The translations under genes were made by a program, and so were the position numbers. Below the pieces are notes generated by a model. It worked only from the letters and a program-made list of their open reading frames with translations. It made no database searches and was not told the DNA's origin. A stretch of DNA of 64,000 bases. Source: Candidatus Omnitrophota bacterium (lineage in GTDB: Bacteria > Omnitrophota > Gorgyraeia > Gorgyraeales > Gorgyraeaceae). Of the stretch, positions 13,901 through 41,994 are shown piece by piece. Each line of letters begins with the position of its first letter. The first letter of the stretch is position 1. The stretch is taken from contig JAHJHC010000032.1 in the NCBI GenBank assembly GCA_018824145.1, forward strand, positions 5,330-69,329, written 5' to 3'.

Positions 13901-16900
13901 CTGGCTACAGTAGTTACTGAATTCCAAGTATATGTGTTTGCATCCTGAGATACTGCCAAAGAAGGTTCAATTTCTGTCCAGGGCCCGGATAGACCATTAC
14001 TAGAAAATTCTATCTTAACATTAGTTATAGCGCCGGAAACCGTAAAGTTAATATCTTCCTGCTCCTGGCAAATCCACGGGTCTCCTGCTTGAGGCCGCGT
14101 AACTACTATATTAGCAATCTTAAAAACAGGCGAAGTATTTGTCACTTCATTATACAATTCATCTGTCACACGCACTACTACATTACTACTAATTGTAGGA
14201 GGTACGGTCCAGGGATAGGATTGGTCACTGGCAGTAATATCCGTATCAATGGTTATCCAATCTACGCCAGTACCTACACCGTCATAATCATAGTCTAATG
14301 TTACCTCAGGTATCGGCCCTGTTGTTGTCCAGGTAATATTCTTCTGCGCGCCGGAATCCCAAACCTGATCCAGCTGCGGGCTGGTAATCAAGAGCTTACC
14401 TCTTACGTAGAAAAAGTCTGAAACAGCCGCTATAGTAGGCTTTGTAGCGTCTGAATTAACTATCCTGACTTTCACTGAATCGCTTATGACGCTGGGAACG
14501 CTCCAGGTAGTTGAATTCTCTGTTAAATCCTCTCCGTCAGTAATATACTGATATGCACCGCCATTTATCGTAGGTTCTGACCACAATACGTCAACAAGTG
14601 GGATATTGCCTGTCTTGGTCCAGGAAATTGTCTTCTGATCCAATACATACCAGGTTTCTCCGCCTACTGGTGCACCAAGGACTATCTTACCTGTTATAGT
14701 GAAATTACCTGACTCATCTTTTACGTCATTAGGCTTGGTAGTATCTGCTATCCTGACATTGATCTCGTCAGACATCTGATCCGGGATCTTCCAGGTGAAA
14801 CTACCGTCTGAGGCAGAAATATTACTTGCCTGGCCTACAGGATCAACCTGCGGGTCTTCCCCTGCTGCCCAACCTAGTACCCAGCCAAAATCTCCGCCAG
14901 CTACTGAATATTCAATATTTACATTATTTACAACGCCTGTTACTGTCCACTCTATATCGTGATTATCATTTACTACCCATGCATCACTGGTAGTAGGACT
15001 GTCAAGGGTTATCTTTGCCCTTACCTCAAACGAGTTAGATGTATGTTTTGCATCTGCGTTATCCGGATCACTGATCTTTACCAAACACGTAGTTGATGCA
15101 ACATCACTCGGTACAGTCCATGAATAAGCACCTGAATTGGAAACAAACCCTGTACCGGGATTTCCAGCGCTTACATAGTCAATATTACGCCAAGCACCGC
15201 CATTATTGCTTGAGAATTCAAGTTTCGCAATAAGTATATCAGCTCCGTTTGGCGTCCAGGTTATGGTGCGACCTGAAGCGGAAATAACATAAGCTGGTAT
15301 AGCGTCTAACACAAATCCGCCCCTGATCTTAAAGGGAACTGATTCGTCTTCTACTTTATCAACAGCTGTCTCAGTATCCTCATCTGTTATCTTGATCTTG
15401 ACACTTTCAGATACGTGATCAGGTATTGATGACCAAGTATAGGATTGACCTGATGCTGCTACAGGCATATTTGAGGCATCTACCAGATCATATCCCTGGC
15501 CATAGTCATAGTAGATGTTTACGAGCCCTATACTTCCTGTATAGGACCAGGTGATGTTCTTATCTGTTGTCCCGACTTCCCAATTAGAATTTGAATCAGG
15601 TTTTACTACAGTTATGCTGCCTATAATGTCAAAACTCGGAGAATCGCCGTAAACACTGGAATTGACGTTATCAACTACTCTAACCACTACGTCATCACTT
15701 ATGGCATCAGGAATATTATCCCATGTGTAATCACTGGTAGCATCTACATTACCGGATACATCCAGGTCTTCAAACGAGCCGCCGTCTACACTGTAGTATA
15801 ACTTCACATAGCTAACCTGTTCAGAACCATTTAGGCTCCAGGAAATAGTGTGTCCATCTGAAAGGACCACTAAATTGCTGTCTTCTACAGGTTGTGAAAC
15901 TGTTATTACAGGCCTTATAGAGAATGGATATGTTGATACGCTATAGACATCAGTGGCTGCACCAGTATGATGCAGAGTATCTGATACTTTTATATAGCAG
16001 TTTTCTGAATTTTCGTCTTCTACTGTCCATTGATATGTATTGGAGCCATCTCCGTAAGCACCTCCGCCGTCATGATCCAGTATAATATCAATGTAATTCC
16101 CACCAGCTGAGGTCTTATATTGTATATCTACATTAGTCACGTCACCTATAGCTGTCCATGTAATATTTTTACTTTGACCTTTAAGCCAAATCGGTTTTGG
16201 AGTTTGCGAATCAGGGGCAGTGACATCCAATGAACCTACGAATTTAATATTATAGGGAACTACTGCCTTCACATCAGAATCATATTCGTGGCTGATTCTG
16301 ATCTTCACCTGATCATCTATGTCATTAGGCACGGTAAATGGATACACCCTTCTGACACCATGCGCAGAGTTAGCCACTGAAGTGAAATAATTAGTCTCCA
16401 GTTCATCCGCAAATGCATTTGTAGAGTATTCTATCTTAATCGGCCCGAATGTCCCTGTGGGTGTCCATTCAATATCATACGAAGTATTAACTGACCACAT
16501 AAGACCGCTCTCTATAGGAGACTCCCAAACAATGTCACCTTCTATCTCAAACGCCTCTGAATCATCAGTTACTTCTGTATTATCCACATCAGTTATCCTT
16601 ACTATAGCTGCCTTAGTATCATCAGTGATAGAATCAATCGCAGGGGCCCATAGATTATATGAACTAGACCCATACTCAAAATCCACTGTTGCTATATTTG
16701 TCCACGGTGCAGATCCGGTCTTGGAGAATTGAATTATCACATCACCCATATCTGCTGTCCCTAATGTAGTCCATTCTATAGTAAAGGCAGTTCCTACTGT
16801 CAATACATCCGTTGTCTCAGGTTCTGTAACAGTAATGCCGCTTTTCATCATGAAGCTATCAGACTCACCACATGCAGCTGCCAATGAAGCATCTGCTACC

Positions 16901-19900
16901 TTGATCATTGCCTGATCTTTAGTCAAAATATCTTCATCAGTAGGAATTGTCCAAGGATACGAAACAGGAGGCGTAGCAGTATATGAAGAGTTAATTACAT
17001 ATCCTCCGTACGGAGGATACGTTACTCCGTCGTCATTAGAATATACTATTTCGAATACATTAGGCGAACCTACTGTACCTATAAGACCTGTTACATTCCA
17101 CTCAATAAGATTACCTGAAGTCCCAATAACCCATTTGTCATTTGAGTCAGGTGAAGTAACAGTTATTACTGCGCGTATCTCAAATGTAGCTGATAGGTCT
17201 ACTGCTGCAGCATTGTCAGGATCACTAATTTTAAATTGGCAGGCAACAGACTTAACATCTGTAGGCACACTCCATGAACAGCTCTCTGAGTTTGTTACAA
17301 GACCCGTATGACCGGTGGGATTAGTCTTGTAGTCAATATCGTGCCATGTAGTACCGTCAAAAAATTCAAGTTTTGCAATAGGAATCTGTCCCTGCAGGTC
17401 ATAATTTTCCCATTTAATAGTATATGGATCACCTGCTGAAAGCGTTGTAGGAAGCAGAGCATCATTGATGTCAAAGTTTCCTGCAATATGGAATGTCGGG
17501 GACTCGTATTTCGTATATGTTTGACGATCCGTATCAACATCCTGGATCATAATCTGAGTAGTTAGAGTAATATGAGGTCCGACACCGTCTATACCAGCAT
17601 CCGGATCATCAAATGTCCACGTATCAGGAGAACCTGGTACAGTACTCTCAGTCTTAAGGTATTGATAGCCCTCACCGTCATCATAATCTATAAGTATATC
17701 CACACTGGTCAATTGATTACCGTATGCTGTCCAGTTAACTGTCTTATTAGTCTCTCCTACAAACCAGTTAGCATCCTGGGCAGGAGATAAACCATAGACA
17801 ATCCTTCCAAGTACGCGGAACGGAGATGAATCTCCGTATACCTTGTCCTCGAATCCAGTATCTTTATCTCTTACTCTTATCACTGCCTGGTTATAGCTTA
17901 ATTGCAGCGGGGCAGTTATAGCTGAACAGGTTTCTTCGGTATTAACATTATCCAAAAGCAATGTACCGGGAAGCCCGCCTGTTCCTGTAGATGAATAGTA
18001 GATCTGCACAGTAGATATAAGATTATCGTCGGATATAATATCTTCTGTCCAGGTCACTGTCTGATTCTCTAATCCAGCCCTCCATATAGGCGGATTAGAA
18101 CCTTCGTCACCAGCTGAAGGAGTAATGGTTACTCCGCTTATTGTCGGGTATGCACTGAATGTACCTGCTGATTCACCTTCTGCCTTTGGCGAAGTCTGTG
18201 CGTCTCTTATCCGAATCGTGCAATTGTTGCTTTTAACATCAGGTATTTGTGGTACGTTATAGGTCTCTATATTACCGTCTCCTACTGTGGCTGTGCCGCC
18301 CACAGCTAAATTATGCTCTGTTGTTCCATCATAGAGATAGATATATACTGTACTCATGGTATCTCCATAAGCACGCCATTTGACCTGTCTATTTGTATCT
18401 CCTACATTCCAGTCTATATCAAACGGCGCATAGTCTACTGTCGGAGTAAGTACAGTTATCTTACCTCGTATGTACATTGCGACTGAGGCAGCGCTTATTA
18501 CACTGCTATAATCTGTCTCATTCGCATCTCTCACCTTAAATTTAGTCGTATCCGTAAGATCAGCTGTTACCGGTATGGTCCACTGGTAAGTACCGCTTCC
18601 TACTGGGGTTGCAACTCCATTAAATGCACTTACATTAAACGGATCCAGATTTGTATCAACTGTATATTCATCTCCTGTAAAATTCCCTGAAGGAGATGCA
18701 ATGATCTTTACCTTATTTATCTCACCATGGTTTACATCCCATGATATGGCCTTTTGTTCTGTTATCCTCCAGGTAGTTGTCGTAGCAGGTGCGGTTAAGG
18801 TAAGAGCACCTCTTACCTTAAAGGCATCGCTTAGTACAAATGTCCCGTCAGTACCGGACTTTTCATAATTTGTATCTTCTATTAAAATCTTATAGTTTGG
18901 TATAAGTGGTGTTTCTGGAATTATCCATGCTGAGGCAAGTGACTGCTGTAAAGCCGCAGTTGTTGAAAATGTGCGGTCAGCAACTATTACATTCGAGAAG
19001 GTCACACCGTCTGTCGCATATTTTACACTCACTGCATTTATACGGCCATCCCTCTGCCAGGTTATCTGCGTACTATCTCTACCTACAAATCCACTGGCTA
19101 ATGTACCTGCAGTCGGAGTAATTATAGTCAGCTGTCCTTTTACTATGAAATCCAATGATTCATCTACGACATATGTGCCGAATGTTGAGGTATCTTCTAT
19201 CTTTATAAGTGAATCATCACCAGCATCCACCCTTGTTATATAATCCCCTGTTGCTGGATTTGTCGGGATAGTCCAATCGTATGAACCCTGGTTCGGAATA
19301 GTATCATCACCATCTGCATCACCGTCACCATCATCATCTTCAGCAGCCATTGAAGCAACTAGCTCTGTCCAGCCACCCCCTGTGTCTCTGGAATATGATA
19401 TCTTTACATTAGTTACAGGACCGTACACATCCCATGAAACAGTATTTGCTGTTGCGCCGTCTGCTGTCCAAATATCACCTTGACTAGGTGCAGTAACTTC
19501 TACATTACCGCATATCACAAATTCATTCGATTCTTTTGCTGTACTCGGTTGAAGCGGCGTACTTGCTGTAATCCTGAACTTTATATCTTCTGCAGCAAGA
19601 TTTAAAGGTATTGGATTATCATGTGCACCAGTCGTATCCCATGTATATGTGTTCTCATTAGCTACTCCTGAACCATGTTTATTGTTAGCAACTCCATCCT
19701 TTATCAATAACCATTCTCCACTGGCACCTGAATCTTTATTCCAGTATTCCAGTTTTACCGCGGAAACACTGTCACCGATTGTATTCCATTTGATTACAAA
19801 GGACGGCGTCAATGAATCTACATGGAAAGGCTCTCCTCCTGTTGGATATGCGAATGTAAAGGAAGAAGTTATCTTAAATGCATCTGATGTAGTAGTAGTT

Positions 19901-22900
19901 GCATCTTCATAAGCGCTGTCACCATCCTGGATCCTTACCTGTACATTGTTTCCAACTTCATTAGGAACGCCATCCGGATCCCATACGCCACCAGCTGATG
20001 CAGGATTATATCCTGCTACGCCGTCATCTACGTCAACATTCGCTTTTAAAAGCACTTCAGGATCGCCTGTGCCATAACCGTCATAATCAATATATATATC
20101 TACTGCTGTTAGATTTCCGTCATAGTGCCACTTTATAAGCTTATCAGTCGCACCTACAGGCCAGTTATGAGCACTATCAGGTTCATCTATATAAATCTTA
20201 CCTGCTACCCTGAAATTAGTAGCTGTCATTGCATTTATATAATCATCAAAATTAGAGTCCGCATCCCTGACTGCGATACGTCCCTGGGTGGTTTTATTAG
20301 TCGCTACTGTAATAGTATTACAGCTGCCCTGGGCTGTAGACCAGTTATCTACTATAGGTGTATCAGTTTCAAAGTTAAATCCGCCTGTTCCAGTAGCACT
20401 GTAATATATATCTACTGTTGTGAGCTTTGAACTTGTCTCTGTCCAGGTAACTGTCTGGTTCTCGGAATCAGATACCCATACTCCGGCTATATTAGGTGGA
20501 TTCGTCGGTGTTATTGCTACACTACTGATAGTCGGATACGCACTAAATGTACCTGACTCTCCTTCTGCATTAGGCGAAACAGCAGCATCTCTTATTCGAA
20601 TCGTACAATTATGGCTCTTTACATCCGGGACTGAAGGTACATTATAAGTCTCTATGTTGCCGTTTCCAACAGTAGATGTACCGCCTACAGCTAAATCATA
20701 CTCGGTAGTCCCATCATATAGATAAATATATACTGTACTCATGGTATCCCCATACGAACGGAACTGTACCTGTTTATCAGCCTCTCCTACCTTCCAGTCC
20801 ACACCAAACGGTGCATAATCTACGGAAGGTGTAAGTACAGTTATCTTACCTCGTATATACATTACTACTGATGCAGTACTTATTACGTCTGCAAAGTCTG
20901 TCTCATTGGCATCCCGAACTTTGAATTTAGTCGTATCAGTAAGGTCAGCTGTTACAGGTATTGTCCATGGGTAACTACCGCTTCCTACAGGAGTAGCTGC
21001 TGCACTAAATGCACTTACGTTAAATGGGTCAAGATTTGTATCAACCGTATATTCGTCCCCTGTGAAATTGCCGGAAGGAGATGCAATGATCTTTACCTTA
21101 TTTATCTGGCCATGGTCCACATCCCAGGATATGGTCTTCTGTTCAGTTATCCTCCAGGTAGTTGTAGTTGAAGGAGCGGTTATAGAAAGCGCACCTTTTA
21201 CTGTGAATGTATTACTTAATATATAGGTACCGTCTGTGCCTGATTTTTCATAATTTGTATCTTCTATTAAAATCTTATAATTAGGTGTAAGCGGGGTCTC
21301 GGGTACTATCCATGCTGAGGCAAGTGATTGCTGTGTAGCTGCAGTAGTGGCAAATGTCCGGTCAGCTGCTATCACATTGGAGAAAGTAACCCCGTCTGTT
21401 GCATACTTTACATTAACTGCATTGATACGGCCATCTCTTTGCCATGTAATCTGTGTCGAGTCTCTTCCTACAAACCCGCTAGCCAGTGTACCTGCTGTAG
21501 GCGCAATTATCGTCAGCTGTCCTTTTACTATAAAATCTAACGACTCATCATTGACGTACGTGCCATAAGTAGCAGATGCATCTTCGACCTTTATATATGA
21601 AACATCAGCTGCATCTACTCTCGTAATAAAGTCTCCTGAAGCAGGATTAACAGGGATGGTCCACTGGTATGCGCCTTTATTTGCCTGAGCATCTCCTGCC
21701 TCTGCTAACTGGGTCGGTACTATTACTGTATAACCAACGCCGCTATCTCTGGAATACGATATTTTAGCATTAGTTACAGGTCCGTATACATCCCATGAAA
21801 TCGTATTTGCTGTTGCACCATCTGCTACCCAAATCTCACCCTGTTCCGGCGCAGTCACATCCAAAGTCCCGCAAATAACGAATTCCTCTGACTCTAATTC
21901 CGTAGCAGGATGATTGGGTACGACTGATGTAATCCTGAATTTAATGTCAGTCGCAGCATAATTTACAGGAAGAGGTGTCGAAGAAGCAGGGCCCCAATCA
22001 TATGTATTGACCTGAACACCATCGCCATAGTTATTATCGACATTCCCGTCTATAAGCGTCCAGCCATTTACGTTGTGATAATATTCAAGTTTTACCTTGG
22101 ATACGTCAGACCCTGTTGTCTTCCATTGAATCTGTAACGGGCTCGGGCTGGTATCATCATCTATATGGAATGTCTCTCCGCCTAACGGATAAGCAAATTC
22201 AAATGAACCAATAATATTAAATGCAGGCGAAAGGTATTGTGTATAAGCCTTTCGGTCTGTATCAACATCTTCTATCCTTACTGTAACATTTTCCGCAGCA
22301 TAGTCACCCACGCCATCTACACCCGTATCTATATCATCATAAGTCCATGAATCAGGAGATTCAGGGACAGTATCTTCTGTCTTCTGATAGATATAGCTGC
22401 TCCCATAATCAATATAGATATCCACCTGAGTAAGCTGATCTCCATATGCTGTCCAGTTAATTAATTTATCCACAGCTCCTATTCCCCAGTTGGCACCTAG
22501 AGAAGGAGATGCACCATAAACTACCCGGCCTAAGACACTGAACACCTCTGTAGAATCTCCGTATACCTTATTTTCAAAACCTGTGTCATTATCCTGGACA
22601 CGGATCTTTGCACTCTGAAAACTCAAGTTTGTCGGAGCAGTAATAGTCGCACAGCTCTCATGCGTCAAGACATCTTCTTTGATTGTTACAGCATCAGCAA
22701 ATGTCCCTGCCTTACTGTATACAATATCAACTGTGTCTACTAGGGTATCATCTGATATATCATTTTCTGTCCACGTTACTGTCTGGTTGGCTAATTTAGC
22801 CCTCCATATAGTATGGTCTTTAGCTTCGTCGCCGACTGAAGGAACTATATCTACATTAGTTATTGTAGGATACACATAAAATGTCCCTGAAGTCTCTGAA

Positions 22901-25900
22901 ATCGTCGGATTTGAAGTAGCATTTTTTATACGGATCTGACATGCATTGCTCTTCATGTCAGGGATCTTGCCGTGAACATCCCAATTTGCTACACTCCAGG
23001 TCTTATTATCACCATCACCGCAGGCAGTTCCTCCTGCACCATTAATGCTCAATAACCACTGGTTACCGTCATAAAAATCTATCCATACAGTGGATATAGC
23101 ACCATAGGCATTCCATGTTATAAGTCTTCCTGTATCCTTTACATTCCAGTCCACGCCTGGTGTCTGAACACTAATCTTGCCTCTTATAGTAACATCAGCG
23201 CCTGATGTAGATGCTACATCATCATAATCAGTCTCGTTATAATCCTTTACCCTGATCCTTGCGATCGTACTGAGAGGTGTATCTCTCTGTATATCCCAGT
23301 CATAGAATCCCTTTGCAACAGGAGAAGTATCTTTATCAAACGCTATTTCATTATCAGCCTGCGTCTGGCCTATAATAAGATACTCGTCCCCGCCAAATGC
23401 ACCTGAAGGCGATATCTCGATCTTGACAAATGCAATATTTCCATGCTGGACATCCCATCTGATCCTCTTATCCTGATCAGTTATGTACCAGGTCGGCTGC
23501 TGCAGGTCAGGATCTGTTATCTTAACTTTTCCTTTTATCTTGAATGGCGGAGATTCGGAATCTATATCCGCATTATTCTTATCCTGGCATTTTATCTTGT
23601 AGCTGGTGCCTATAAACTCAGGCGGAGACCAGCTTGTAATATGCTCTGTCTCTGCACCGACAAAATCTATTACTCCATTTGTCCCAAGGTCAGTCATGAG
23701 GTCCCAGCTGTCTCCATCCCATAAGTATAGTTTCACGCCTTCTATATTTCCGTATCTTTTGAATTTAATGTTCTTGGCAATACCTGCTTCATATACATTG
23801 TACCCTTCGGTCCCATCATCAGGCCATAGCATCTCTACAGAACCCCTTGTCGTAAACTGGTCTGATAGAATTGCCAAAGTGTATGTCTCACGGTCTTTAT
23901 CCACGACCTTTATCTCTGCTGTAGGTGAAAGCACTACCTCTTCGTCAATATACCAGCCCCATGTCCCGTTTAATCCGTCTCCACCATGTGAAGGTACGGT
24001 CTCAGCATCGTTAAGTAAATCCCATGCAGTCTGGTCGTCTGGCCTATAATATATATTCACATTCGGGAAAGTGCCCCATTTCTGCCATTCAATAGTCTCT
24101 GTATCATTAGCTTCCCATGAATCATTGCTGTCAGGTTGCAAAACCTTACATTTTGGGGCAATAGTAAAGTTAGCTGCAGATATTCCTTGAGCAGCAGAAT
24201 TATCCGGGTCTGTAATTTTAATCTTACAAAGCTGTGACATAACTGTCGCAGGAGATGTCCAGGAGTAGCTTTCGTTATTAGAGACAAGGGTAGTTGTATC
24301 TGCTTCAAGATTATTAACTATGTTATACCAATTAGTGCCGTTCGTTGTGTATTGCATCAATACATCGCTTATCAATGTCCCTGTCTTAGCCCAGGTAACT
24401 ATCGCAGCCCTGTTAGAGACAACAACTGTATCTTCCGGGTCAACAGCAGTAACAGCTATAGTCTCGAATTTTCCTGCGATATGGAATGTTACAGAGTTAT
24501 ATTGAGTCAGAGGTCCTCTATCAGTATCATTATCCTGTAGTCTTATCTGGGCGCTTTCTGTAACATTATCTCCGACAGTGCCGCTCCCTTCAGGGTCTTC
24601 AAATGTCCATGGGCTTGAATTCGCGGCTATAGTAGTAATGTAGTTGAAGCCGGCCCCGTCATCATAATCTGCATAAACATCTAACTGGGTAATTTCTGTT
24701 CCAAAAGCTGACCATATTACCTGACGGCTGTCATCTCCGATAAACCAGTCAGCATCCAGTGAAGGAGATGCACCGTATTGTATTCTACCAAGCATCCTGA
24801 ATGCAGATGAATCTGCGTATATCTTATCCTGGAAATCTGTATCTGCGTCTCTTACCCGTACTATCGCAGAATCAAAACTCAAGGCAGCTGGAGCAGTAAT
24901 AGTATTGCATATTTCATGGGTAGTTACAGCCCCGCCTGTATTAAGCGCTGTATCAGGTGTCCCGCCTGTTGCAGTGTATAGAATCTGAACTTCACTTATA
25001 AGGCCTGGAGTAGCTATGTCATTCTCTGTCCAGGTCACTGTCTGACTCCCTAATCCTGCTCTCCATATAGGAGGATTAGAGCCTTCATCTCCTGTTGAAG
25101 GTGTAATCGTTACGCCTGTTATAGTAGGATATACACTAAATGTGCCTTGAGATTCGCCTGATACAGTAGGTGAAGATTCTGCGTTTCGTACCCGTATCGT
25201 ACAGTTAATGCTTTTTACATCAGGTACCTGCGGTACGTTATAGGTCTCCTCATTACCGTCTCCGTTAGTTGATATCCCGCCTACAGCAAGGTCATGCTCT
25301 GCTGCGCCGTCATACAGATAGATATATACTGTCCCCATGGTGTCGCCGTATGTTGTGAATTTAACCTGTTTATCAGAATCCCCGGGATGCCAGTCCGTAG
25401 AAGGCAGATAATCAACCGTGGGGGTTTTAACTGCAATTTTTCCCCTGATTAATATAGCTGGAGATGCAGCAGTTATTACAGTCGGAAAGTCTGTCTCATT
25501 GTCATCTCTGACCTTAAATTTAGTTGTATCACTTAGCACTGCTGTCACAGGGACAGTCCAACTATAACTTCCGCTTCCTACAGGAGTTGCCACTCCATTA
25601 AATGCACTTACATTAAAAGGATTCAGGTTTGTATCTACTACATATTCATCTCCCGTAAAGTTCCCTGATGGTGAAGCTATGATTTCCACTTTACTTATCT
25701 CACCATGATTTACATCCCAGGATATGGTTTTATTTGTATCTGTTATGTTCCAGGTATCAGTCGAAGATGGGGCTGTTAATGTAAGTTGTCCTTTTACTCT
25801 AAAATTACCGCTTTCTACAAATGTTCCGTCTGCGCCTGATTTTTCATAATTCGTATCTTCCACCAGTATATTATAACTTATACTTAGCGGGGTCTCCGGG

Positions 25901-28900
25901 ACTATCCATGCTGATGCAAGTGACTGTTGTGTAGCTGCGGTAGTGGCAAACGTCCTATCAGCTGTAATCACGTTCGAGAAAGTTACCCCGTCTGTTGCGT
26001 ATTTCACATTAACAGCATTGATCCTTCCGTCTCTTTCCCAGGTTATCTGGGTCGAGGCTCTTCCTGTAAATCCATTAGCGAATGTAGCTGCAGAAGGTGT
26101 TATTATCCTTAACTGTCCCTTTACTATAAAGTCAAGGGATTCGTCAGTTACATATGTACCGAATGTAGAAGTGTCTTCTACTGTTATATATGAATCATCT
26201 CCTGCATCCACCCTTGTTATATAATCTCCTGTAGCTGGATTCGTCGGTATGGTCCAATCATATGAACCTTTGTTCGGAATAGTGTCATCTTCATCTGCAT
26301 CTCCATCACCATCATCATCTTCAGCTGCCATTGTAGAAACCAACTCTACATATCCTACACCACTATCTCTGGAATATAATATCTTTACGTTAGTTACAGG
26401 TCCAAAAACATCCCATGATATGGTATTTGCTGTTGCACCATCTGCTGTCCAAATCAACCCTTGAGTAGGAGCTGTAATAGCAATATTTCCACAAATCACA
26501 AATTCATTCGATAACTTTGCTGTCGACGGCTGGTCAGGTGTGCTTGACGTAATCCTGAATTTTATATCCTCTGCTGCCAAGTTCAATGGTAATAAATTAT
26601 CATGTGCCCCGACTCTATCCCAGGTATATGTGTTTTCATTAGCTACACCAGACCCGTGTTTATTATTGGCTATACCGCTCTTTATCAATAACCATTCACC
26701 GGATGCACCTGAATCTTTATTCCAGTATTCTAATTTCACTGCAGAAACATTATCACCTATGGTATTCCACCTGATTTGAATACTCGGAGTGGTTGATGCA
26801 ACATGGAATGTCTCTCCGCCTACAGGATACGCAAACGTAAATGAGGCAGTTATCTTAAATGCCTCAGATGTTGTAGTAGTTACGGATTCATAGTTACTGT
26901 CAGCATCCTGGAGCCTTATCTGTACATTATTCCCAATCTCATTAGGAACTCCATTCGGATCCCATGCTCCGCCAGCAGATGCTGGGTTGTAGCCTGCGCT
27001 TCCCTGGGTTGCGTCAACATTTGCCTTTAAAAGTACTTCGGGATCTCCGGTCCCATAACCGTCATAGTCTATATATATATCCACTGCGCTTATATCCCCG
27101 TCATAATGCCACTTGATCAGCTTATCAGTTGCACCTACCTGCCAGTTATGTGTATCATCAGGCTCATCTATGAATATCTCACCACAAACCTTGAAATTTG
27201 CAGGTATCATGGCATTTATATAATCATCAAAATTAGAATCTGCATCCCGGACTGCAATACGGCCTTGCAGGGTCCTTTCTGTCGGTACAGTTATTGTTGC
27301 GCAACTTCCTTGAGCAGTACTCCAATTATCCACTATCGGAGTATCAGTTTCAAAATTAAACCCTCCTGTTCCTGTAGATGAATAATATATATCTACTGTC
27401 GTAAGTTCAGCACTCGTCTCTGTCCACGTCACTGTCTGATCAGCTGCCTCAGCTATCCATACACCTGCTGTATTAGGCGGATCCGTCGGGGTTATTGCTA
27501 CATTTGATATAACTGGATATGTGCTGAATGTACCACCTGACTCGCCTTCTGCAGTCGGAGAAGATTCTGCATTCCTCACCCGAATCGTACAGTTATGGCT
27601 CTTTACATCAGGAACTGTAAATTCACCGCTGCCGCCAAATGTCTCTTCACTTCCATTGCCGTTCGTTGCTATACCGCTACCTCCATCTATCTGATGCTCT
27701 GCTACTCCGTCATATAAATAGACATATACTGTACTCATGGTATCGCCGTATGTTGTGAATTTTACCTGTTTATCTGTATCCCCTACGTTCCAGTCATCAC
27801 TGGGCAAATAATCTACTGTAGGTGTCTTTACTGTAATTTTACCTCTAATATACATTGCTACTGACGCTGCGCTTATTACATCAGCATAATCTGTCTCGTT
27901 CATATCCCTTACCTTGAATTTAGTAGTATCACTCAGGACCGCTGTAACTGGTATGGTCCACTGATAACTTCCGCTTCCTACAGGAGTTGCTGCTGCACTG
28001 AACGCACTTACGCTAAATGGATTCAAGTTTGTATCAACTACATATTCATCCCCTGTGAAATTACCTGATGGAGATGCAATAATCTTGACCTTACTTATCT
28101 CACCATGAGCTACATTCCAGGATATAGTCTTATTTGTATCTGTTATATTCCATGTAGTAGTTGATGATGGGGCTGTAAGTGTAAGCGCACCTTTTACTGT
28201 AAAAGGATTACTTAGTACATACGTTCCTGATGTGCCTGACTTTTCGTAATTCGTATCTTCGATGAGTATCTTATAGTCCGGGGTTAAAGGTGTCTCTGGA
28301 ATAATCCAATCTGAAGCAAGTGACTGTTGAGTAGCTGCAGTAGTCGCAAATATACGGTCACTGACTAATGAATTGGAGAAAGTTACTCCGTCTGTTGCGT
28401 ATTTTACATTTACTGCATTGATCCTTCCGTCTCTTTCCCATGTAACAGGGGTTGTTTCTCTTCCTACAAAACCATCAGCTAATGTGGCCACAGACGGCGC
28501 TATTATCCTTAACTGTCCTTTTACTATAAAGTCAAGGGATTCATGGCTGACATACTGTCCGAAGGTTGAAGCATCTTCTACCTTTATATATGAACTCTCA
28601 GATGCATCTACCCTTGTTATATAATCACCTAATGAAGGATCTGTTGGTATAGTCCACTGGTACGCTCCTTTATTTGCAGCTGCATCTCCTGCTTCAGCTG
28701 ACATTGACGAAACCAACTCTACATAATTTGACTTACTGTCTCTTGAATAAGCTATCTTTACATTAGTCACAGGTCCGTATACATTCCATGATACGGTATT
28801 AGCTGTTGTGCCGTCTGCAACCAATGTCAATCCCTGGGTAGGAGCAGTAACTGCGATATTTCCGCAGATTACAAATTCATTCGATACCTTTGCTGTTGAA

Positions 28901-31900
28901 GGTTGCAGTGGAGTACTCGACGTAATCCTGAACTTTATATCTTCTGCAGCCAGATTCAGAGGCAGCAGATTATCATGCGCACCAACTGTATCCCATGTAT
29001 ATGTATTTTCATTAGCAACTCCTGAGCCGTGTTTATTATTGGCAACTCCATTCTTTATCAACAGCCATTCACCTGATGTCCCTGAATCCTTATTCCAGTA
29101 TTCGAGTTTTACTGCAGAAACACTATCACCTATAGTATTCCATTTAATTACAAAGGATGGCGTCAATGAAGTAACATGAAACTCCTCACTGCCTACAGGA
29201 TACGCAAATGTAAATGAGGCTGTTATTTTAAATGCCTCTGATGTAGTAGTAGTTGCATCATCATAATTATCATTGGCATCTTGGATCCTTATCTGTACAT
29301 TATTCCCGACTTCATTAGGAACACCAGCCGGATCCCATGCCCCACCAGCAGATGCTGGATTATATCCTGCTACTCCGTCATCTACGTCAACATTGGCTTT
29401 TAAGAGCACCTCACTTGTTCCGGTGCCATAACCGTCATAATCTATATATATATCTACAGCACTTACATCTCCGTCATAATGCCACTTGATCAGCTTATCA
29501 GTTGCACCTACCTGCCAATTATGTGTATCATCAGGCTCGTCTATATATATCTTACCAGCTACCCTGAAGTCTGTCTGCATCATGGCATTTACATCATCAT
29601 CAAAGTTGGAATCTGCATCCCGGACCGCGATACGTCCCTGCAGGGTCCTTGTTGAAGGTACTGTTATTGTGGCGCAGCTTCCTTGAGCAGTAGACCAATC
29701 ATCCATTATCGGCGTATCTGTCCCAAAGTTAAAACCTCCTGAACCTGTTGAACTATAGTAAATATCTACTGTATCAACCTGTGCGCTTGTATCCGTCCAT
29801 GTAACTTCCTGGTTAGTAGCACCTGTTATCCATACGTTTGCTACATCCGGTGGATCTGTAGGAGTTATTGCGACATTTGATAAAACAGGGTATGCGCTGA
29901 ATGCACCTGATTCTCCTTCTACATCAGCATCGACTCTTATCACTGTATCCCTTACCCTGACTGTACAGGCATTGCTCTTTACATCAGGAACTGACGACGG
30001 TAGAGTAAAGTCCTGCGGGTTGCCATTACCTGCTGTTGCTACACCGCCGCTGTCTAATTGATGCTCGACTCCGTCATCACCGTCATAGAGAAATACATAT
30101 ACAGTGCCTAAAGCACTTCCATAGGCAGAGAATTTTACTATCTTACCTGTATCTCCGACTTTCCAGTCAACGAACGGAGAGTAATCTACTGTAGGTGTCT
30201 GGACTAGAATATTAGCCCTCATATCCATGGCAGCTGAGGCATTGCTCTTTATATCTGTAAAACTTGCATTGTCATGCACTACCTTGAATTTTATGGTATC
30301 CACAAGGGGTGTACTAATAGGGATAGTCCAAGGATAGTTTCCGCTTCCTACCTTTGAAGGCAATAAACCTGTATTGAACGCCTCTACATTGAATGGATTA
30401 AGGCCTGTCACAACATCATATTCGTCTCCTGAGAAATTTCCGGAAGGAGACGCAATTATTTTTACATAATCCAATTGCCCGTGGTCTACCTCCCAGGATA
30501 TGGTCTTTTCCTCTGTTATCCTCCATGTAGCTGTAGCTGTAGGGGCAGTAAGGGTAAGTGCGCCTTTGATCCTGAAAGCATCACTTGGGACAAATGTTCC
30601 GTCTGTGCCTGACTTTTCATAATTTGCGTCTTCAATCAGTAATATATACTCGTCAGTTACCGGGGTCTCCGGTACCTGCCATTGGCTCGCTGTGGATTGT
30701 TGTGTAGAATTTATAGTCGCAAATGTGCGGTCTTGAGCTATTACATTGGAATAATTATCAACACCATTATTTGTAGAGTATTTTACGTTTACTGCATAGA
30801 TACGTCCGTCTCTTTCCCATGTTATAGTATTGGAACTCGCACAGTTTAAACCTGCCGAAAGCGCGCCTACAGTAGGTGCTATCAGCCTTAATTGACCTTT
30901 TACCATAAAGTCAAGAGATTCATCTGTGGCATATGTATCAAACGGAGCTACTGCATCAGATACCTTTATAAGTGAACCATGAGCGGCATCTACTCTGGTA
31001 ATAAAGTCGCCTTGTGCTGGGTCTGTTGGGATAGTCCATTGATATGCGCCTTTATTTGCTGCTGCATCTCCTGCTTCTCCTGACTGCTCAGTGAGCTCCA
31101 CATAAGATTCACTTACGTCTCTGGTGTAGAATACCTTTACGTTGCCCACAGGTCCGAAAACATTCCATGACACTGTATTAGCTGTTGTACCATCCGCAAC
31201 CCACGTTACACCTTGTGTAGGGGCAGTAACTTCTATATCTCCGCATAGCACAATAGTAGCTGATTCCAATTCTGTATCTGGCTGGTTCGGAGTTACGGCT
31301 GTAATCCTGAATTTAACATTTGTCGCAGCAAGGTTTACTGGAAGCGGCCCTGTTGAATCAGCATCCCATGTATAACTATTTTCAGTGTCTCCCCAGCTAT
31401 TGTTGGCAAGGCTGGGTTCTATGGGAGTCCATCCATTAACATTATGGAAATACTCGAGTTTCACTGCGGTTATATTCGTACCGCTGGTCTTCCATTTTAT
31501 GAGGTACCCAGTAGGATCTGTATCATCATCAATGTGATGAACTTCTCCTACTGCAGCGGGTTTTGTAAACTCAAATCCGCCAAGTATAGGGAAAGGATCT
31601 GATGTATCAGTTGTTACAGTATATGCATCAACATCATCTATTTTAATCTTTACATTGTTTCCAACATAATCACCTATACCTTCGTCAGTCGGATCTCCGG
31701 GATCTTCCCATGTCCAGCTATTATACCCGCTTGAACACGCAATCGTAGTAAGTGTCTCATCCATAGTGCCATCACCATTATAGTCAGCATAAATCTTTGC
31801 ATCCCCTATAGTACCTTTAACATTCCATTCAATCAGACGGGTCGTATCCCCTACTGTCCAGTCCAAACACGTGTCATCAGGCTTAGAAATAACGATCTCA

Positions 31901-34900
31901 CCTATGACGTCAAATGGATTTGATTCTCCATAGACAATGCCAGTATAATCTACAGGAGAAGTCTGGGCATCCTCTATACGAATATTCGCGCTGTTTGTAA
32001 GGGTTGCAGGAAGCACTACAGTGGAGGTATATGATAAACTGGCTGGAGGAATACCTGTCTTATCTATATTAGATGCAAGGGTCTTTGGATATCCTGCGCC
32101 TGAATTACCATCTTCCAGAATTATATTAATGTTCGTGGTCGGAGCAGCTATTGCACTCCATTCAATAAGATTACTATTACTTTCAGCTATCCACGCCTGT
32201 GAAGGTGTAGTAACTGTTATTTTTGGCTTTAATGTAAAAAAGGTTGTTTCTACATCGATATCATTATTCTGGTTCGATATAACACGGATCTTACATTGCT
32301 CACTTCTCTGCTGTTGTTTTGTATCTGCAGCATGCCATAAATAAGTATTGGTGCCTGACTTAAGGCCTGCTGGATTATTATCATGTCCGTCATATGCATT
32401 ATCGATCGTAGTGTATCCTGTACCTTCAACATAAAGTTCGATCTTTACAGTTGACATAATACCAGTTGCTTCCCAAGTAACATTATGGTCTTCTCCAACA
32501 TACCATGTCCCAGGTGTAGTGATCGAGGTAAGGTCTCCTTTAATAATAAATGTATCACTTTCATCCTGCAGTTCATATGGAGCGCCCAGGCCATCATAAT
32601 TTATTGCAGTGGTACGGATCTTACACAAGTTATAAATCTTATCGGGGACTGTCCAGCTTAGAGTAACTCCAGTTTCACCGGATGCTCCTGGAGTCCGTGA
32701 ATCAGGAAGGCCTGATCCTCCTGCATTGTCCAGCCAGTCACTTCCGTCCCATAATTCAAATTTAAGATTCCCTGTATCTCCGTACTTCTTCCATTTTACT
32801 GTAACACTGTCTCCAACAGTCATCTCCTGATCCAACACAGGCTGCATCATCTCTAATTGGCCGACAACAATATTTGCCTCACCTACAGCAGTTTCTGCAT
32901 ACACATCCTGTCCATCAAGGGCATCTTCAACTCGGAAAAGCACCTTATTGTCCATAGCTGGATTTGTTATATCAGAATCTATAGCAGTATAATCTGTAGA
33001 AGTTACGCCTCCTGCTAAATCACTGCCGATCTGTGTCCACTGTGTATCACCGATATTCTTATAAAATGCCTTTAAATTAGTAAAACTACCGACATTCGAC
33101 CAATTAATAGTATGTACTCCTGATCCTATTGTTATGGTCTCATTCTTTGTACTGGGATCCCCAGGCGGCTGGTCAAATAAAATATTTCCTTTAAAGGCAT
33201 GTGTAGGAGAACCAGCCATTATAGGCCCGAATATATCAAATTCGTGGTTCATCTCTCCTACTCTGATCTTCACTTCAGGCGCAGTACTTTCAGGGATATT
33301 AACAGTATAAGGCGTCCCAGGGACATTTGTGCAATAATCAGGGGCAATTTCAGTGGCTCCGGAGAATGCTACCCATGAACCATCAGGATAACTTGCTCCT
33401 GAGTTTGTATTATACATAATCTTTACATTCCCTACGTCACCCTTTACATTCCACTCTATGTCTCCTGTACTCAAGACATTGTATCCCTGATTAGTTAGAG
33501 GGCTGTCAATAACGATTTTACCTCCTATACTAAAAGTCGGAGATATAGAAACAACATCCGTATCTTCATATTTCACCTGCTCATCATCTTCTTCCACTCT
33601 TACCAGCTTGATCTTCGCATTATTATGCGCAACAGTATTAGTCTCAGGGATCGTCCATAAAGAACCACTGGCTGTAGACGCCCATGTTGGCTGTTCATAC
33701 CAATTGGTTCCATCAGGTGTAGAATAGAGTCTCACCCAGCCAATTAAACCTGTTGTGGTCCAGGTAATGGCTTTACTTTGTTCTATAATCCACAGGTCGC
33801 CGATACCAGGCGGAGTCCCTATAAAAATCCTTGGTTTTATCTCAAAGTCATACAGAGATTCATCTGATACAGAGGTATCATTATGGTCTCTTACACGCAC
33901 TCCGGCCTTATCAGTTGTAATTGTCTGCCTGTCATTCTCAGCAGGTATACTCCATGAGTAAGGTGAAGATCCTCCTCCGATTTGCGATGCAATCGTAAAA
34001 TCTGTATAATCATTATTCCCGCTATCTGTATCTAAGAGTATATCTACTTCAGCTATACCACCTGTAACAGTCCATGTAATAGTCGGAGCGCCTGTAGCAG
34101 GCGGCTGTGAAAATCCGTCAACAAACCATAACTCTATATTCTGGTCATCCATGCCAGGTGAACCTAAATACACAGCACCTTTTACTACAAAATTACTCTG
34201 AGAGTTCGCAAAGACATAGGTACCGTCATTATTATCATAAATCTTTACTCTATATGTTATACCAGCTGTGGCAGGAACCTGCATTGAATGATGGCAAATA
34301 TTGCTTCCATCTTCATTTTTGTCATGAGCAACAGTAGCTACAGGTATATCATATAAAGTGCCTGAATCATCATCATAGTATATTTCGCATGTACCTAAGT
34401 CCCCCTTATATCTCCACTGCACATCTATATCCGCGCCACCCACATAATATACCTCGCCACCGTTAGGCGCTTCCATCCAATGGTTCTTTTCGCCTCCTGA
34501 TATTGCGTAAAGTTTACCTTTAATATGGAAGTCAATATCCGTAGCATGCTTTACACTGGTCTCGTCTGCGTCTTCTATCTTTATCTCATTACCGGAAGTA
34601 GTACACTTATTTGCAGGGACTGTCCAATCGTAATAGCTGTTACCACTTGCCGGTAAAGTAGTTATAGGCGTCCCAACATTTCCTAAACCATCTTCCCATG
34701 TTACACCATCCGGCGCATAATATAATTTTAAATCACCAAGGTCATACCCGCCCGTCTTACCCACGTTGTCATTAACTACCCACTCGATCCTGAAGGTCTC
34801 TTCAGCGATCAATGCATCAGCATTTATATTGCTTGCATCCGGGCTAGTTATCTCTAACTTGCCTAGTACAGTCAGTTCTGAAGATTCCTTATATACATCA

Positions 34901-37900
34901 GTCGCATGGGCAACGCTCTCAACCCTTATACGTATATCATTGTCAGGAGGAGTAACTTGCTTGGTAACAGGGCAATCTATCTTCGGCCATGAAAACGAAT
35001 CTACATTTGATATACCACTCGCTATAGTACCACCCCAACCCCCAGTTCCTCCCTCTGTATCATATTTTACATTCACAGTCTGTACACCGTTTGTTCCTGT
35101 GCCTCCGCCTTCTGTCTCCCATGTAATATTATAGTTAGTAGTTCCTACATAAACAGTTCCAGTAGATGGAGAAAGATTGACAAACCTTGCCTTGATAGTA
35201 AGTTTATCTGCAACAGATATAGATTCTATGCGATCATCGTCTTTTGCCCTGATTTTTATCCTTATCTGTGAATTCAAACCATTGTCTCCAACCTTAAAAA
35301 CAGTATCATCATCTGGTATAGTCCATGTATATGACTCATCAGTTGCAGTAACTACACCTGGAGTATCAACAATAGCATTAGTGTAGTTATCAGAACCATT
35401 ATTCTTTGAATAATAAATATAAATGTCTCCTATGCCTGAACCTTCTGCATCCCAGATAATAGCATTCTGGGCCCCGCATTCCCAATCAGGGCTCACAGCA
35501 GGAGAGCCGGCATTCTGCGGAGGTGTTGTAAGCTCCAGACTCCCAAGGATAGCAAAGTTATTTAGTGATGCGTCACTTACATCATCTTCATCTCCTACCT
35601 TAACAGAATACACCTTTATCTTACATTGCTGGCTTACAATGCCCGGAAGATTCTCAATGGTCCAAGTGTAATAAGACTCATCCTCATATGTAGTATCATA
35701 ATTATTTTCAGAAGGGATGGAGCCGCCTAGTAAGGCATCATAGTCAGTGCCGCCATTTGTCGAGTATGCTATCATTACATCTCCAAAATCAAAATCAACA
35801 GGCTTCCACCTTATATCCATTGTCTCGCCTATTGTCTTCACTATACCTGTAGCATCAGGATAGCTCAGCTTGATCTGGGGTTTTACAGCAAAATCAGCTG
35901 TCCCTGTATTTGATTCACCAGCAGTCCCTGTAACCAGATCTTCATCTCCCTGTAAGGCCACCATTATCATATCGTTTGCCCCTTCATGCACAGGAAGGAC
36001 TGTCCAGTTGAATGTTCCAGCTGTGATGTCAGTTGTATCAGGCGTGGTCAGTTCGTAAGTATAGTTGCTTCCGCTGTTCTTTGAGAGCATTATCTTGGCC
36101 CATCCGGTTATAGATCCGTTCACATCCCAGGTTATAGCAGTTGTCTCACTTGTGTCAGAGATCTTAACAAAATTTGTAGTCGGAGCTGTAACTACTATAG
36201 ATCCTTTTATCTTGAATGCAGGGCTTTCATGATATATATTCGTCAGACTGTAGTCCTGGACCTTTACATAGACTTCATTATCCAGGTCATTAGGGATAGT
36301 CCATGCATATTTTAAATCAGTTGAAGGCTTATCTACTCCAGGGGCTATTTCAGCGTAGCCACCAGCCCCTTTCTTATAAAACACCTTTACCTTATCATCA
36401 GTTGTGCTCCCCTTTAAAGTCCACTCTATATCCCTCTGGGTTCCATATCTCCACACATCATTAAGTTCCGGCTTTGTAATTGTAACTACCTGCTCTATTG
36501 TGAAGACAGCAGCTGATTCATCATCAATATCACTAGGATATGCAGCACTCTCTATTCTGATCATGGCTTGTGTAGATTCCGGAGCTGGAACAGGATCCCA
36601 TGTCCAAAAACACTGGTTCGAATATGTAGTATTATAATTATTCGCCACATCGATCCCGACTCCGCCGTTTAACTTTTCCCATGTACCTCCAGTATTCCTT
36701 GAAATGGATATATATACCTTATTATTACCAACAGGCCCTACATCACCTTCGTATTCCCATATAATGTCATGGGAAGTACCCACCTGCCATGAAGGCGCGC
36801 CACCATCATGCTGAATAAGGGTCACGGTAGCGTCTATGTCAAAAACAAGGTCAGATTCATCCTCTACTCCTGTAAGCTCAGCCTGTGAACTCTCTATCTT
36901 GACCATGGCTTCATCACTTATAGGCAACTCCGGAGTCCACTGGTAATAGGATTGGTTCGTATAGGTAGTATTGTAATTTAGATTCGCTGCTACTTCATCT
37001 ATATACTCCCATGCAACACCGCTATTCCTTGATACGTAGAGTTTCACATTGGTCGTGGACAGGTTGCTTGTATTTGACCATACAATATGTCCGTTATCAC
37101 CTGTGGTACTGCCTGTAATCCATCTCTCATCTCCACCCATAGGCTCTACAAGTGTTATTGAACCTTGTTCTATAGTGATGCTGGCGCTTTCGCCGTATAC
37201 AGTCGAATCCGCTATGTCAGACTGGACTACCTTTATCTTGGCGTAATCATCCTGAGCAGGCTGGACAAGACTAAAAGGTATATCCCAATCATATGAACTC
37301 CCAGTGCCGGATGCCCCTGCAGGCTCATCCAATTTAATAGGCGTGTTATATGATAAGCCGTCATTATTTGAATAAAATATATTTACCGTGCCATCAGTAA
37401 TGCCTGTACCGAAATGTCCATGTTTCATCCAGGAAATAGTCTTATCCTGCTCACCAAGATACCAGGTTGTAGGAGAAGTAGGAGTTACACTGGTTATACG
37501 GCCTCTTAATGTAAACGGCTGAGATATAGTTTGTACAGTTGTATTCGGGGAATCAGGGTCATAATTTGAAGTTATCTTAATGACACAATTCGTGCCGATT
37601 AAGTTCTCTCCGTCTATTGCAGCAGGTATTGTCCAGGGAAAAGTGCCGCTTCCGCCGTCGCCTGCTCCGGTACCGACACTGGTAGTAGTGCTTAACGGCG
37701 TACTAAGGTAAGTCTGTCCTCCGTCAATAGAAAGCTTTATTGTAACAGTTGTCGTACTTAAAGTATCCAGGTGCCCCAAATAGTCCCACGTAATATCCTG
37801 CTGTTCCCCTATCCTCCAGGTATTTGGCGGCTGGTCAATAGTCAAAACTCCTTTTATAATAAAATCCTCATTGGATATATCAATGTTTCTTGCTGACATA

Positions 37901-39993: not shown

Positions 39994-40008
39994 TGTCCTC
40001 GCCTCCTT

Positions 40009-41780: not shown

Positions 41781-41797
41781 CTTACCTTTTCTCCTTC

Positions 41798-41850
41798 AAA
41801 ATGCCTGGCACCTATCTAAAAGTGCCTGGCACTTTCTATCTAAAAACAAA
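41798..41850 (-). promoter_or_regulatory. Candidate operator or promoter region of the HUH-fusion, secreted-protein and giant-gene operon. It is a tandem 21-bp direct repeat, and each copy carries the palindrome TGCCTGGCA.
   Basis: tgcctggcacctatctaaaa (41802-) and tgcctggcactttctatctaaaaa (41823-) are centred about 25 and 45 bp upstream of the ATG at 41780. An AAGGAG SD precedes the ATG. Confidence 0.4.
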
Positions 41851-41873: not shown

Positions 41874-41880
41874 TTCTCCT

Positions 41881-41979: not shown

Positions 41980-41994
41980 TTGTCCTCCTATTAA

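Follow-up and report, generated by a model that had tools for sequence, protein, structure and literature searches.

A 64,000-nucleotide (nt) stretch of DNA from a Candidatus Omnitrophota bacterium (contig JAHJHC010000032.1 of assembly GCA_018824145.1, forward-strand positions 5,330 to 69,329; hereafter the window) contains between positions 17,400 and 32,200 a nested repeat that a first-pass annotation had described as actively expanding. The repeat lies wholly within a single uninterrupted open reading frame (ORF) of 10,669 amino acids (aa) on the minus strand (window 7984-39993; residue i begins at window coordinate 39993-3(i-1)), which was characterized from the ORF list, its translation, an in-house hidden Markov model (HMM) and a match to the Pfam family Kre9_KNH. 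The segment is best read as an ancient super-repeat of seven immunoglobulin (Ig)-like domains, kept by selection and undergoing slow concerted evolution, within the stalk of a very large fibre protein that is secreted or anchored. As far as can be seen from the window the array is not active, being instead a stable, selected part of the protein, and we put the joint probability of these statements at about 0.75.

Organisation of the super-repeat

The HMM, seeded with one super-repeat domain and iterated on the protein, converged on 85 tandem Ig-like domains of ~100 aa, which form a rod from aa 588 to 9938 with gaps of at most 29 residues. Identity between domains averaged 50% (maximum 88%) at an offset of seven domains, compared with 14-18% at offsets of one to six; adjacent rod domains were ~18% identical, with a maximum of 27% in the core. 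Segmentation with the HMM and an AlphaFold model of the second unit agreed on a super-repeat unit of seven domains (a to g) and 781-799 aa; the segmentation left no room for the eighth domain of the first-pass annotation, which had also put the unit at about 775 aa. Six such blocks follow one another (U1, U2, U3, UX, U4 and U5). A-type units (U1, U2 and U4) end in domains f and g and B-type units (U3, UX and U5) in the distinct domains f' and g', giving the order A A B B' A B, in which UX is degenerate.

All six blocks are encoded on the minus strand. U1 (window 29215-31572; domains 21-27, aa 2808-3593), delimited by the domain table and the unit alignment, has the plain A-type series a b c d e f g and is 65% identical in aa sequence to both U2 and U4. 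U2 (26845-29214; domains 28-34, aa 3594-4383) is likewise A-type and was delimited by the domain table, the alignment and the AlphaFold model. U3 (24463-26844; domains 35-41, aa 4384-5177) is B-type and carries in its domain b the acidic insert DDDGDGDADEDD (aa 4559-4570, window 26284-26319). UX (22210-24462; domains 42-48, aa 5178-5928) is the degenerate sixth unit between U3 and U4; in a table of best hits for each domain its domains d and e were 32-48% identical in aa sequence to those of the other units and its last two domains were of the f',g' tail type, and its domains a to c had no specific match to domains a to c of the other units. U4 (19864-22209; domains 49-55, aa 5929-6710) is A-type, with a first domain (U4a) unlike that shared by U2, U3 and U5: it is 51-55% identical to the others and 55% identical to U1a, with which it groups in the tree for position a. 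U5 (17467-19863; domains 56-62, aa 6711-7509) is again B-type, with the acidic insert DDDGDGDADGDD (aa 6886-6897, window 19303-19338).

The landmarks and all the motifs cited in the first-pass annotation could be placed on this map. The positions it had given for five units, at about 31.4, 29.1, 26.7, 22.1 and 19.7 kb, correspond to unit starts (FEFTKP or FTFAYP) at 31575, 29214, 26841, 22203 and 19860. The motifs cited as linking units 2 and 4 were recovered at aa 3766 and 6097 (AEAGDA.ANKGAY) and at aa 3996 and 6327 (SAFSAAATPVGSGSY), and those cited for units 3 and 5 at aa 4559 and 6886 (the acidic insert DDDGDGDA.., common to U3 and U5) and at aa 4796 and 7122 (SAFNGVATPVGSG). The count of five held for the clear units and missed UX. 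What had been taken for an LGR[IV].YG.SP tail following each pair of units turned out to be the f' and g' domains of U3, UX and U5 themselves (aa ~5068, ~5820 and ~7396).

Domain family and predicted fold

The distal domains of the rod matched the Pfam family Kre9_KNH (PF10342, 'Kre9/KNH-like N-terminal Ig-like domain') in five stretches, with 70.9 bits (E = 1.6e-19) against a gathering cut-off of 24.6 bits; the match over aa 631-2597 was weak (21.4 bits, below this cut-off), and aa 2598-4997 (U1, U2 and most of U3) gave no Pfam match. The Pfam scans covered aa 1-4997 and 7497-10669, on either side of the stretch aa 4998-7496, in which UX, U4 and U5 lie, and in the scanned segments returned only Kre9_KNH together with weak DUF4082 and Reelin-subrepeat matches. 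The kinship of the super-repeat domains with Kre9_KNH is therefore transitive, since the in-house HMM built from a super-repeat domain also recovers the distal domains that match PF10342. The two differ in length, the PF10342 model having 94 positions and the super-repeat domains ~110-120 aa with position-specific inserts.

With the 85 domains used as alignment, AlphaFold modelled domain b of U2 as a beta sandwich (predicted local distance difference test score, pLDDT, 88.5; predicted template modelling score, pTM, 0.83), and the best matches of this model in a Foldseek search of the PDB were Ig V-set domains (E ~1e-4, template modelling (TM) score ~0.5). The whole of unit 2 was modelled as seven beta-sandwich modules (mean pLDDT 75.9). 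The confident beta-sandwich model, its Ig V-set neighbours and the Kre9_KNH match together support the label 'Ig-like'.

Similarity between units at the DNA level

The periodicity is real at the DNA level and not confined to the protein. In a self-comparison by blastn the best-scoring match was a high-scoring segment pair (HSP) of 4,275 nt with 74.1% identity at an offset of 6,993 nt (E = 0), the arms of which run from domain b of U2 to domain g' of U3 (window 24636-28878, minus strand) and from domain b of U4 to domain g' of U5 (17655-21885, minus strand). This 4.2-kb repeat starts exactly at domain b and excludes domain a, which fits U4a being of another type, and its offset equals three unit lengths because UX sits between U3 and U4. 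Further HSPs with E = 0 were found at offsets of 2,379 nt (3,798 nt, 73.2%), 9,372 nt (3,890 nt, 71.6%) and 2,361 nt (1,496 nt, 75.7%). An independent repeat search returned spacings of 2361-2400, 4593-4620, 6981 and 9369-9375 nt with 61-84% identity per 300 nt, and a chunked protein dot-plot had the same diagonals as the DNA matches.

The copies are far from identical. Between whole units nucleotide identity was 57-73%, the copies being 26-43% diverged in DNA and differing by indels in addition. The best whole-unit pairs were U2-U4 (73.6% aa and 72.5% nt identity) and U3-U5 (73.0% and 71.6%), and their margin over U2-U3, U4-U5 and U2-U5, all at ~67.6-67.7% nt identity, was small. The longest exact direct repeat in the 32-kb gene measured 47 nt, and just five reached 27 nt. 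Tandem Repeats Finder (TRF) reported no array in the whole gene, since the 2.3-kb period exceeds the limit of the program and short-period repeats are lacking.

Divergence, selection and orthologous arrays

Whole-unit synonymous divergence (Ks, Nei-Gojobori) ranged from 1.10 to 2.23, with 1.34 for U2-U4 and 1.35 for U3-U5, and the lowest value for any single pair of domains was 0.64 (U1g-U4g). The ratio of nonsynonymous to synonymous divergence (Ka/Ks) was 0.14-0.25 for whole units and 0.05-0.48 across comparisons, mostly below 0.25; all copies are under purifying selection.

A profile scan of the contigs of species-representative genomes, a set to which the source genome of the window does not belong, with the unit alignment gave a sole match, a 4.1-kb contig (L003/P0002) of a Guaymas Basin metagenome-assembled genome (MAG) labelled 'Kazan'. 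This contig is collinear with aa 4975-6350, that is, with f' and g' of U3, all of UX and domains a to d of U4, at 70% aa identity and with saturated synonymous sites (proportion of synonymous differences, pS, 0.79). Each of its domains is closest to its positional counterpart: all seven UX domains are 58-85% identical in aa sequence, and the U4a ortholog is 66% identical to U4a, compared with 40-45% to other a domains. The junction between UX and U4, and hence the block, must then predate a deep species split, since this far-diverged contig already carries it. We rejected a bias in base composition as the source of the saturation, the G+C content at third codon positions (GC3) being alike in the two sequences (0.35 and 0.37).

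A scan of metagenome contigs added one useful locus (L004) and two further loci with weak matches (24% identity). L004, at ~50% aa identity, has one-to-one equivalents of domains 9-20 followed by distinct U1 and U2, and positional orthologs of U1 were found in L004, P0001 and P0016. P0019, at ~40% aa identity, contains 3.5 or more of the seven-domain units, and more distant relatives differ in the order and number of units. With a query of 1,579 aa the homologous-protein collection yielded no fragment above 90% identity to the window, and it consequently contains no independent copy of the array; every homolog found in searches of this collection was a gene-internal fragment on a short contig. 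Gene-internal fragments of this fibre gene of the Omnitrophota type (P0001, P0002 and P0016; contigs L014, L003 and L015) were seen on 3-5-kb contigs in MAGs labelled Paceibacterota, candidate division Kazan and Kerfeldbacteria; they are more likely to be parts of giant genes placed in the wrong bins than proteins of the candidate phyla radiation (CPR).

Mosaic relationships among units and a probable two-unit block copy

According to the first-pass annotation units 2 and 4, and units 3 and 5, were closest to each other, which it explained by a segmental duplication of roughly 7 kb layered on an older tandem array. Over whole units these pairs are indeed the closest, although the relationship is regional. 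Parsimony-informative nucleotide sites among U2 to U5 were compared domain by domain: those in domains b, f and g favoured the block topology (U2 with U4, U3 with U5) and those in domains c, d and e the adjacent topology (U2 with U3, U4 with U5), with the block type leading overall (171:89:47). Heterogeneity along the unit was highly significant (chi2 = 138.7, 12 degrees of freedom, p = 1e-23; p = 0.002 for domains a to e alone). In domain a, the copies of U2, U3 and U5 group together at 86-90% aa identity. The adjacent signal in domains c to e was also seen at purely synonymous sites, in codons with the same residue in all four units (27 for the adjacent topology versus 9 and 5, p = 4e-5), and is therefore genealogical and not due to convergence at the protein level.

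A two-unit copy is the best single explanation of the alternation of A and B units, the shared acidic insert and the 6,993-nt HSP. Two relatives, P0020 and P0023, lack a second A-B pair: after a B-type unit and UX their sequence goes straight on to equivalents of window domains 63-70, for which reason U4 and U5 look like an inserted block. The duplication account is supported as far as the hierarchical architecture and the copying of a two-unit block are concerned and is incomplete in domains c to e and a: gene conversion or further events are required, because c to e group adjacent units and domain a groups U2, U3 and U5.

The alternative that fares best dispenses with the block copy altogether and lets the array grow by serial duplication of single units, the likeness of U2 to U4 and of U3 to U5 (in the acidic insert, the f,g or f',g' ends and short motifs) arising later by gene conversion from other units or being maintained by selection for alternating A and B types. 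The grouping of adjacent units in c to e, at synonymous sites too, and the grouping of U2, U3 and U5 in domain a are what such growth would leave; UX also ends in f' and g', so that these tails occur without an A partner, and domain b yields no block signal at its synonymous sites. Serial growth is nonetheless hard to square with a top-scoring self-match that is continuous over 4.2 kb at an offset of 6,993 nt, with the dominance of block-type informative sites, and with relatives that pass from UX straight to the equivalents of domains 63-70, as if U4 and U5 had entered as one piece. On balance we regard it as unlikely.

Concerted evolution and present activity

In neighbour-joining (NJ) trees built position by position, U2a, U3a and U5a, domains d of U2 to U5, and U1g, U2g and U4g formed clusters that excluded the positional orthologs of other lineages, and the same within-lineage clustering was seen for domain e in P0001 and L004. 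Gene conversion or unequal exchange, acting now and then over evolutionary time, leaves just such clustering, and its pace is slow enough that no near-identical tract survives here. With 47 nt as the longest exact repeat, the array offers little substrate for RecA-type recombination and nothing for an assembler with k > 47 to collapse.

One relative has a different appearance. Contig L015 (JACRFN010000091.1 of GCA_016217875.1, 4,824 nt, labelled Kerfeldbacteria) is homologous to the super-repeat and reads through without a stop codon, and its first and last 141 nt are 100% identical. Its net period of 4,683 nt equals 1,561 codons or 14 domains, corresponding to one A-type and one UX-type unit, and the contig is probably a looped de Bruijn unitig from collapsed, near-identical tandem two-unit blocks. 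Expansion of the kind first proposed thus probably does operate within the family, in an organism other than this one. In other relatives adjacent units were 74-79% identical in nucleotides and contigs ended at exact repeats of 25-68 nt. The contig of P0001 was considered as a further case of near-identical units and rejected, its units being only 74% identical and its end falling at an exact repeat of 65 nt.

Several points weigh against an ancient and quiescent array with the history proposed here. Paralogs within the window have a pS of 0.5-0.65, compared with 0.79 for the Guaymas orthologs, from which it follows that some exchange took place after the Guaymas split and that the array has not been completely frozen. 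L015 suggests that recent two-unit amplification can occur in the gene family, if in another organism. The synonymous sites of domain b, taken alone, do not favour the block topology (4:3:5), and orders other than a block copy followed by conversion would also fit. No independently assembled contig of this population reaches across the array; and it is the architecture only that suggests a stalk or spacer function for the protein.

Some of these observations are also what would be expected if, as first proposed, the ~7-kb duplication were recent and the gene were still expanding by unequal recombination, variable in length within the population and prone to collapse or expansion in assembly. 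DNA-level similarity does occur at offsets of one to four units, synonymous divergence is lower among paralogs of this genome than between distant orthologs, the 4,683-nt period between the identical 141-nt ends of L015 comprises exactly two units, and the homologs found are all gene-internal fragments on short contigs. A nucleotide identity between units of just 57-73%, Ks values of 1.1-2.2 for whole units (~1.3 for U2-U4 and U3-U5) and of at least 0.64 for every domain pair, the 47-nt maximum for exact repeats, and the succession of UX and U4 in an ortholog already saturated at synonymous sites all speak against active expansion, and where other assemblies of this population break, they do so beyond the limits of the super-repeat. 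We consider recent expansion highly improbable; with units 26-43% diverged and no longer exact repeats, neither the length variation nor the assembly collapse that had been anticipated finds support in this genome. That the units are chimeric stitchings of strain variants of fewer real units is hardly credible, for although the source is a metagenome assembly, no independent contig crosses the array and the assemblies of relatives break or loop in the fibre gene, the DNA differences of 27-43%, the indels, the U4a type, the acidic inserts and the two kinds of tail far exceed strain variation, the reading frame is intact over 32 kb with all copies under purifying selection, unit-specific positional orthologs exist in other organisms (of U1 in L004, P0001 and P0016; of UX and U4a in the Guaymas contig), and the flanks are 99.8-100% identical to independent assemblies (window 33940-51254 and 5913-11138).

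Proposed history and role

The ancient super-repeat with slow concerted evolution could have arisen as follows. An ancestral seven-domain block would have been multiplied by in-register unequal crossing-over, after which the A and B flavours diverged; an A-B pair would then have been copied to the far side of UX to give U4 and U5; and patches would have been exchanged by gene conversion, domains c to e between neighbours, domain a among U2, U3 and U5, and domain g among U1, U2 and U4. All these events would be old; every copy has since undergone near-saturating synonymous change under purifying selection.

The succession of an N-terminal hydrophobic segment, an 85-domain rod and a C-terminal region matches the plan of a surface fibre or of a fibrillar adhesin, in which we infer a stalk or spacer role for the rod. 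At roughly 4 nm per domain, a rule-of-thumb size for Ig-like domains, 85 domains would make a fibre about 0.3-0.4 um long. Copying in blocks of seven would lengthen such a fibre without bringing like domains side by side (neighbours ~18% identical, against a mean of 50% at offset seven). In titin and in multidomain folding generally, dissimilar neighbours are thought to limit misfolding between domains, and by analogy seven-domain copying should do the same in the fibre. A further idea, which we hold to be quite doubtful, is that the seven-domain period is itself functional, its positions kept distinct by selection across Omnitrophota lineages (the period can still be recognised in P0019 at ~40% identity) so that the protein acts as a periodic scaffold or molecular ruler. 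Were this true, the fibre would be a bacterial, extracellular counterpart of the titin super-repeats and would offer a recurring set of binding surfaces, ~25-30 nm apart, to a partner that is itself periodic, for instance an S-layer, a sheath or a host-cell surface.

Nested repeats that are plain to see in a giant gene of a bacterium, then, need not mean ongoing expansion, and synonymous divergence, the length of exact matches and positional orthologs can serve to date repeat arrays. The 32-kb gene model is trustworthy as far as the logic of the sequence goes and needs no flag as collapse-prone. The probable, recently amplified two-unit block in another organism is a concrete target for the study of length variation in uncultured, possibly host-dependent bacteria.

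Flanking domains, termini and genomic setting

Traces of the seven-domain period were found on both sides of the core. Domain 20 (window 31573-31902, minus strand), directly before U1, is of g-type, with 40-42% identity to U1g, U2g and U4g, and is possibly left over from an earlier unit; it is kept at 57-77% in P0017, P0021 and P0024. Domains 63-70 (15019-17466, minus strand) hold weak vestiges of the period: domain 63 resembles domain 70 (42%) and domain 42 (UXa), domain 64 the b-type (35%) and domain 69 the g-type (40%), and the mean score at offset seven was 67.5, versus a background of 55 among pairs outside the core. Further along the rod, domains 82-84 (window 10691-11479, aa ~9481-9839) make up a local triplet, mutually 36-41% identical; they have the motif PIDEDNDP..TA.TG.V.NG in common and contain an exact DNA repeat of 25 nt (offset 681 nt). 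This is another internal duplication, on a smaller scale than the first. The relatives P0020, P0033 and P0039 retain counterparts of domains 83-85 at their distal end.

An N-terminal hydrophobic signal or anchor, read from sequence alone, was placed at aa ~25-47, followed by AEA|VQ, and between it and the rod lie ~590 aa without family assignment. Within the N-terminal non-repeat region (aa 1-587, window 38233-39993) there are segments that recur, marked by a 'W.VVEF.D' motif, and a weak match to DUF4082 (E = 0.001); the region shares just 24-30% identity with its counterpart in the L004 ortholog and is far less conserved than the rod domains. At the other end, the C-terminal non-repeat region of ~730 aa (731 aa) includes two modules of ~90 aa (window 8404-8958; aa 10344-10433 and 10436-10526), mutually 40% identical, with a weak, sub-threshold NCBIfam match to a type IX secretion system (T9SS) sorting domain (E = 0.008), and these are preceded by a probably helical segment rich in Q, E, D and M (window 8974-9336, aa ~10220-10340). 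The N-terminal 587 aa and the C-terminal 731 aa gave no informative match in Pfam, NCBIfam or PDB sequences; Pfam returned no matches for the C-terminal 838 aa, and NCBIfam none above cut-off for unit 2, both termini and two small neighbouring ORFs.

The giant gene is flanked by ordinary genes of the chromosome, which exact-sequence look-ups assign to Candidatus Omnitrophota MAGs. Downstream of it are a 270-aa ORF and then F-type ATP synthase genes; upstream are a 168-aa ORF, called as a 156-aa version in other assemblies, and a 422-aa Y1_Tnp-like ORF. A run of genes at 42104-55314 (minus strand) encodes five paralogous proteins of 617-763 aa that carry TPR arrays at their C-termini, and between these genes stand two for B12-binding radical SAM proteins; beyond the run, further upstream, lie genes for an LPG-synthase-TM protein, a heptosyltransferase and a SurA/cyclophilin peptidyl-prolyl isomerase (PPIase). 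Judged by this TPR and radical SAM run and by the three genes beyond it, the giant gene sits in a cell-envelope neighbourhood. The G+C content is 41-44% in the giant gene, 33-40% in the genes upstream (42-64 kb) and 41-43% in the downstream ATP synthase genes, a contrast that may come from the Gly-, Thr-, Asp- and Ala-rich composition of the giant protein rather than from a foreign origin.

Between the giant gene and its downstream neighbour, 54-126 nt 3' of the stop codon, there is an intergenic hairpin (window 7858-7930) with 31-nt arms that are 97% complementary, an 11-nt loop and an RNA fold energy of -58.8 kcal/mol (z = -10.2 versus shuffled sequences); short direct repeats, GGAAATT(C), flank it. 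The hairpin may be either a terminator or an element like those termed repetitive extragenic palindromic (REP). The 422-aa 'transposase' ORF (40512-41780, minus strand), a short way upstream of the giant gene, matches the Pfam Y1_Tnp/IS200-like family over its N-terminal 110 aa only. A homolog of 422 aa and 50% identity occupies the same position in the distant ortholog locus (L004, 2485-3753), and because this position has been kept the ORF looks like a conserved partner gene and not a mobile insertion sequence. A relationship of this ORF to the downstream hairpin resembling that of REP-associated tyrosine transposases (RAYT-like) is conceivable.

Comparison with known systems

The A-band of titin contains super-repeats of Ig and Fn3 domains, in blocks of seven domains in the D-zone and of eleven in the C-zone, and judged by layout these super-repeats are the closest architectural analogue. 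Both are very long chains of beta-sandwich domains in which a multi-domain block (of seven here) is itself repeated, domains at equivalent block positions are more alike than neighbours (here 50% at offset seven versus 14-18%), and the copies are old and under purifying selection. The likeness is architectural and not one of homology: the fibre protein is bacterial, with an N-terminal signal or anchor, and presumably extracellular, and its domains are Kre9/KNH-like Ig-like domains, not I-set or Fn3. Unlike for titin, we know of no periodic binding partner for the fibre protein.

Among bacterial surface proteins, Periscope proteins have long, highly identical repeats with high DNA identity and vary in length from strain to strain (Whelan et al. 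2021, PMC8201768), and repeat gain and loss by intragenic recombination has been proposed as the length-changing route both for them and for fibrillar adhesins (PMC8201768, PMC8286594). The fibre protein resembles them as a bacterial surface protein with a stalk of long tandem globular-domain repeats (85 beta-sandwich domains) and differs in that its repeats are 57-75% identical in DNA, with 84% in the best 300-nt window and exact matches of at most 47 nt, well short of the high identity that marks Periscope repeats. In a fibrillar adhesin (Monzon et al. 2021, PMC8286594) stalk domains occur together with an identifiable adhesive domain and an anchor at the cell surface; the stalk is present here, together with the predicted N-terminal hydrophobic segment and its AEA|VQ.

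Giant proteins from the same phylum, Omnitrophota, have been described by West-Roberts et al. 2023 (10.1101/2023.11.21.568195) and are of at least 30,000 aa, with Archaeovorin combining HEAT/TPR and enzyme domains and the Dockerin type combining dockerin and TSP3 domains. The fibre protein resembles them in being long, membrane-anchored or secreted, and made up chiefly of a single repeated domain, and at 10,669 aa is well below that size. No HEAT, enzyme, dockerin or TSP3 domains were found in its Pfam-scanned segments (aa 1-4997 and 7497-10669), and by its predicted domains it is neither an Archaeovorin nor of the Dockerin type. According to a 2026 preprint (10.64898/2026.06.07.730766), nucleotide tandems in long Omnitrophota genes have generally dissolved and the domain architecture persists. 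The Kre9_KNH-like domain is not among the examples quoted in these two sources (10.1101/2023.11.21.568195 and 10.64898/2026.06.07.730766), nor was a seven-domain higher-order period found described in the passages that term searches of them returned; the present analysis documents such a period in an Omnitrophota fibre of Ig-like domains. The fibre fits the class of 'tandem-repeat scaffolds' of the 2026 preprint, and the conclusion that its repeats are ancient agrees with the one drawn there (10.64898/2026.06.07.730766).

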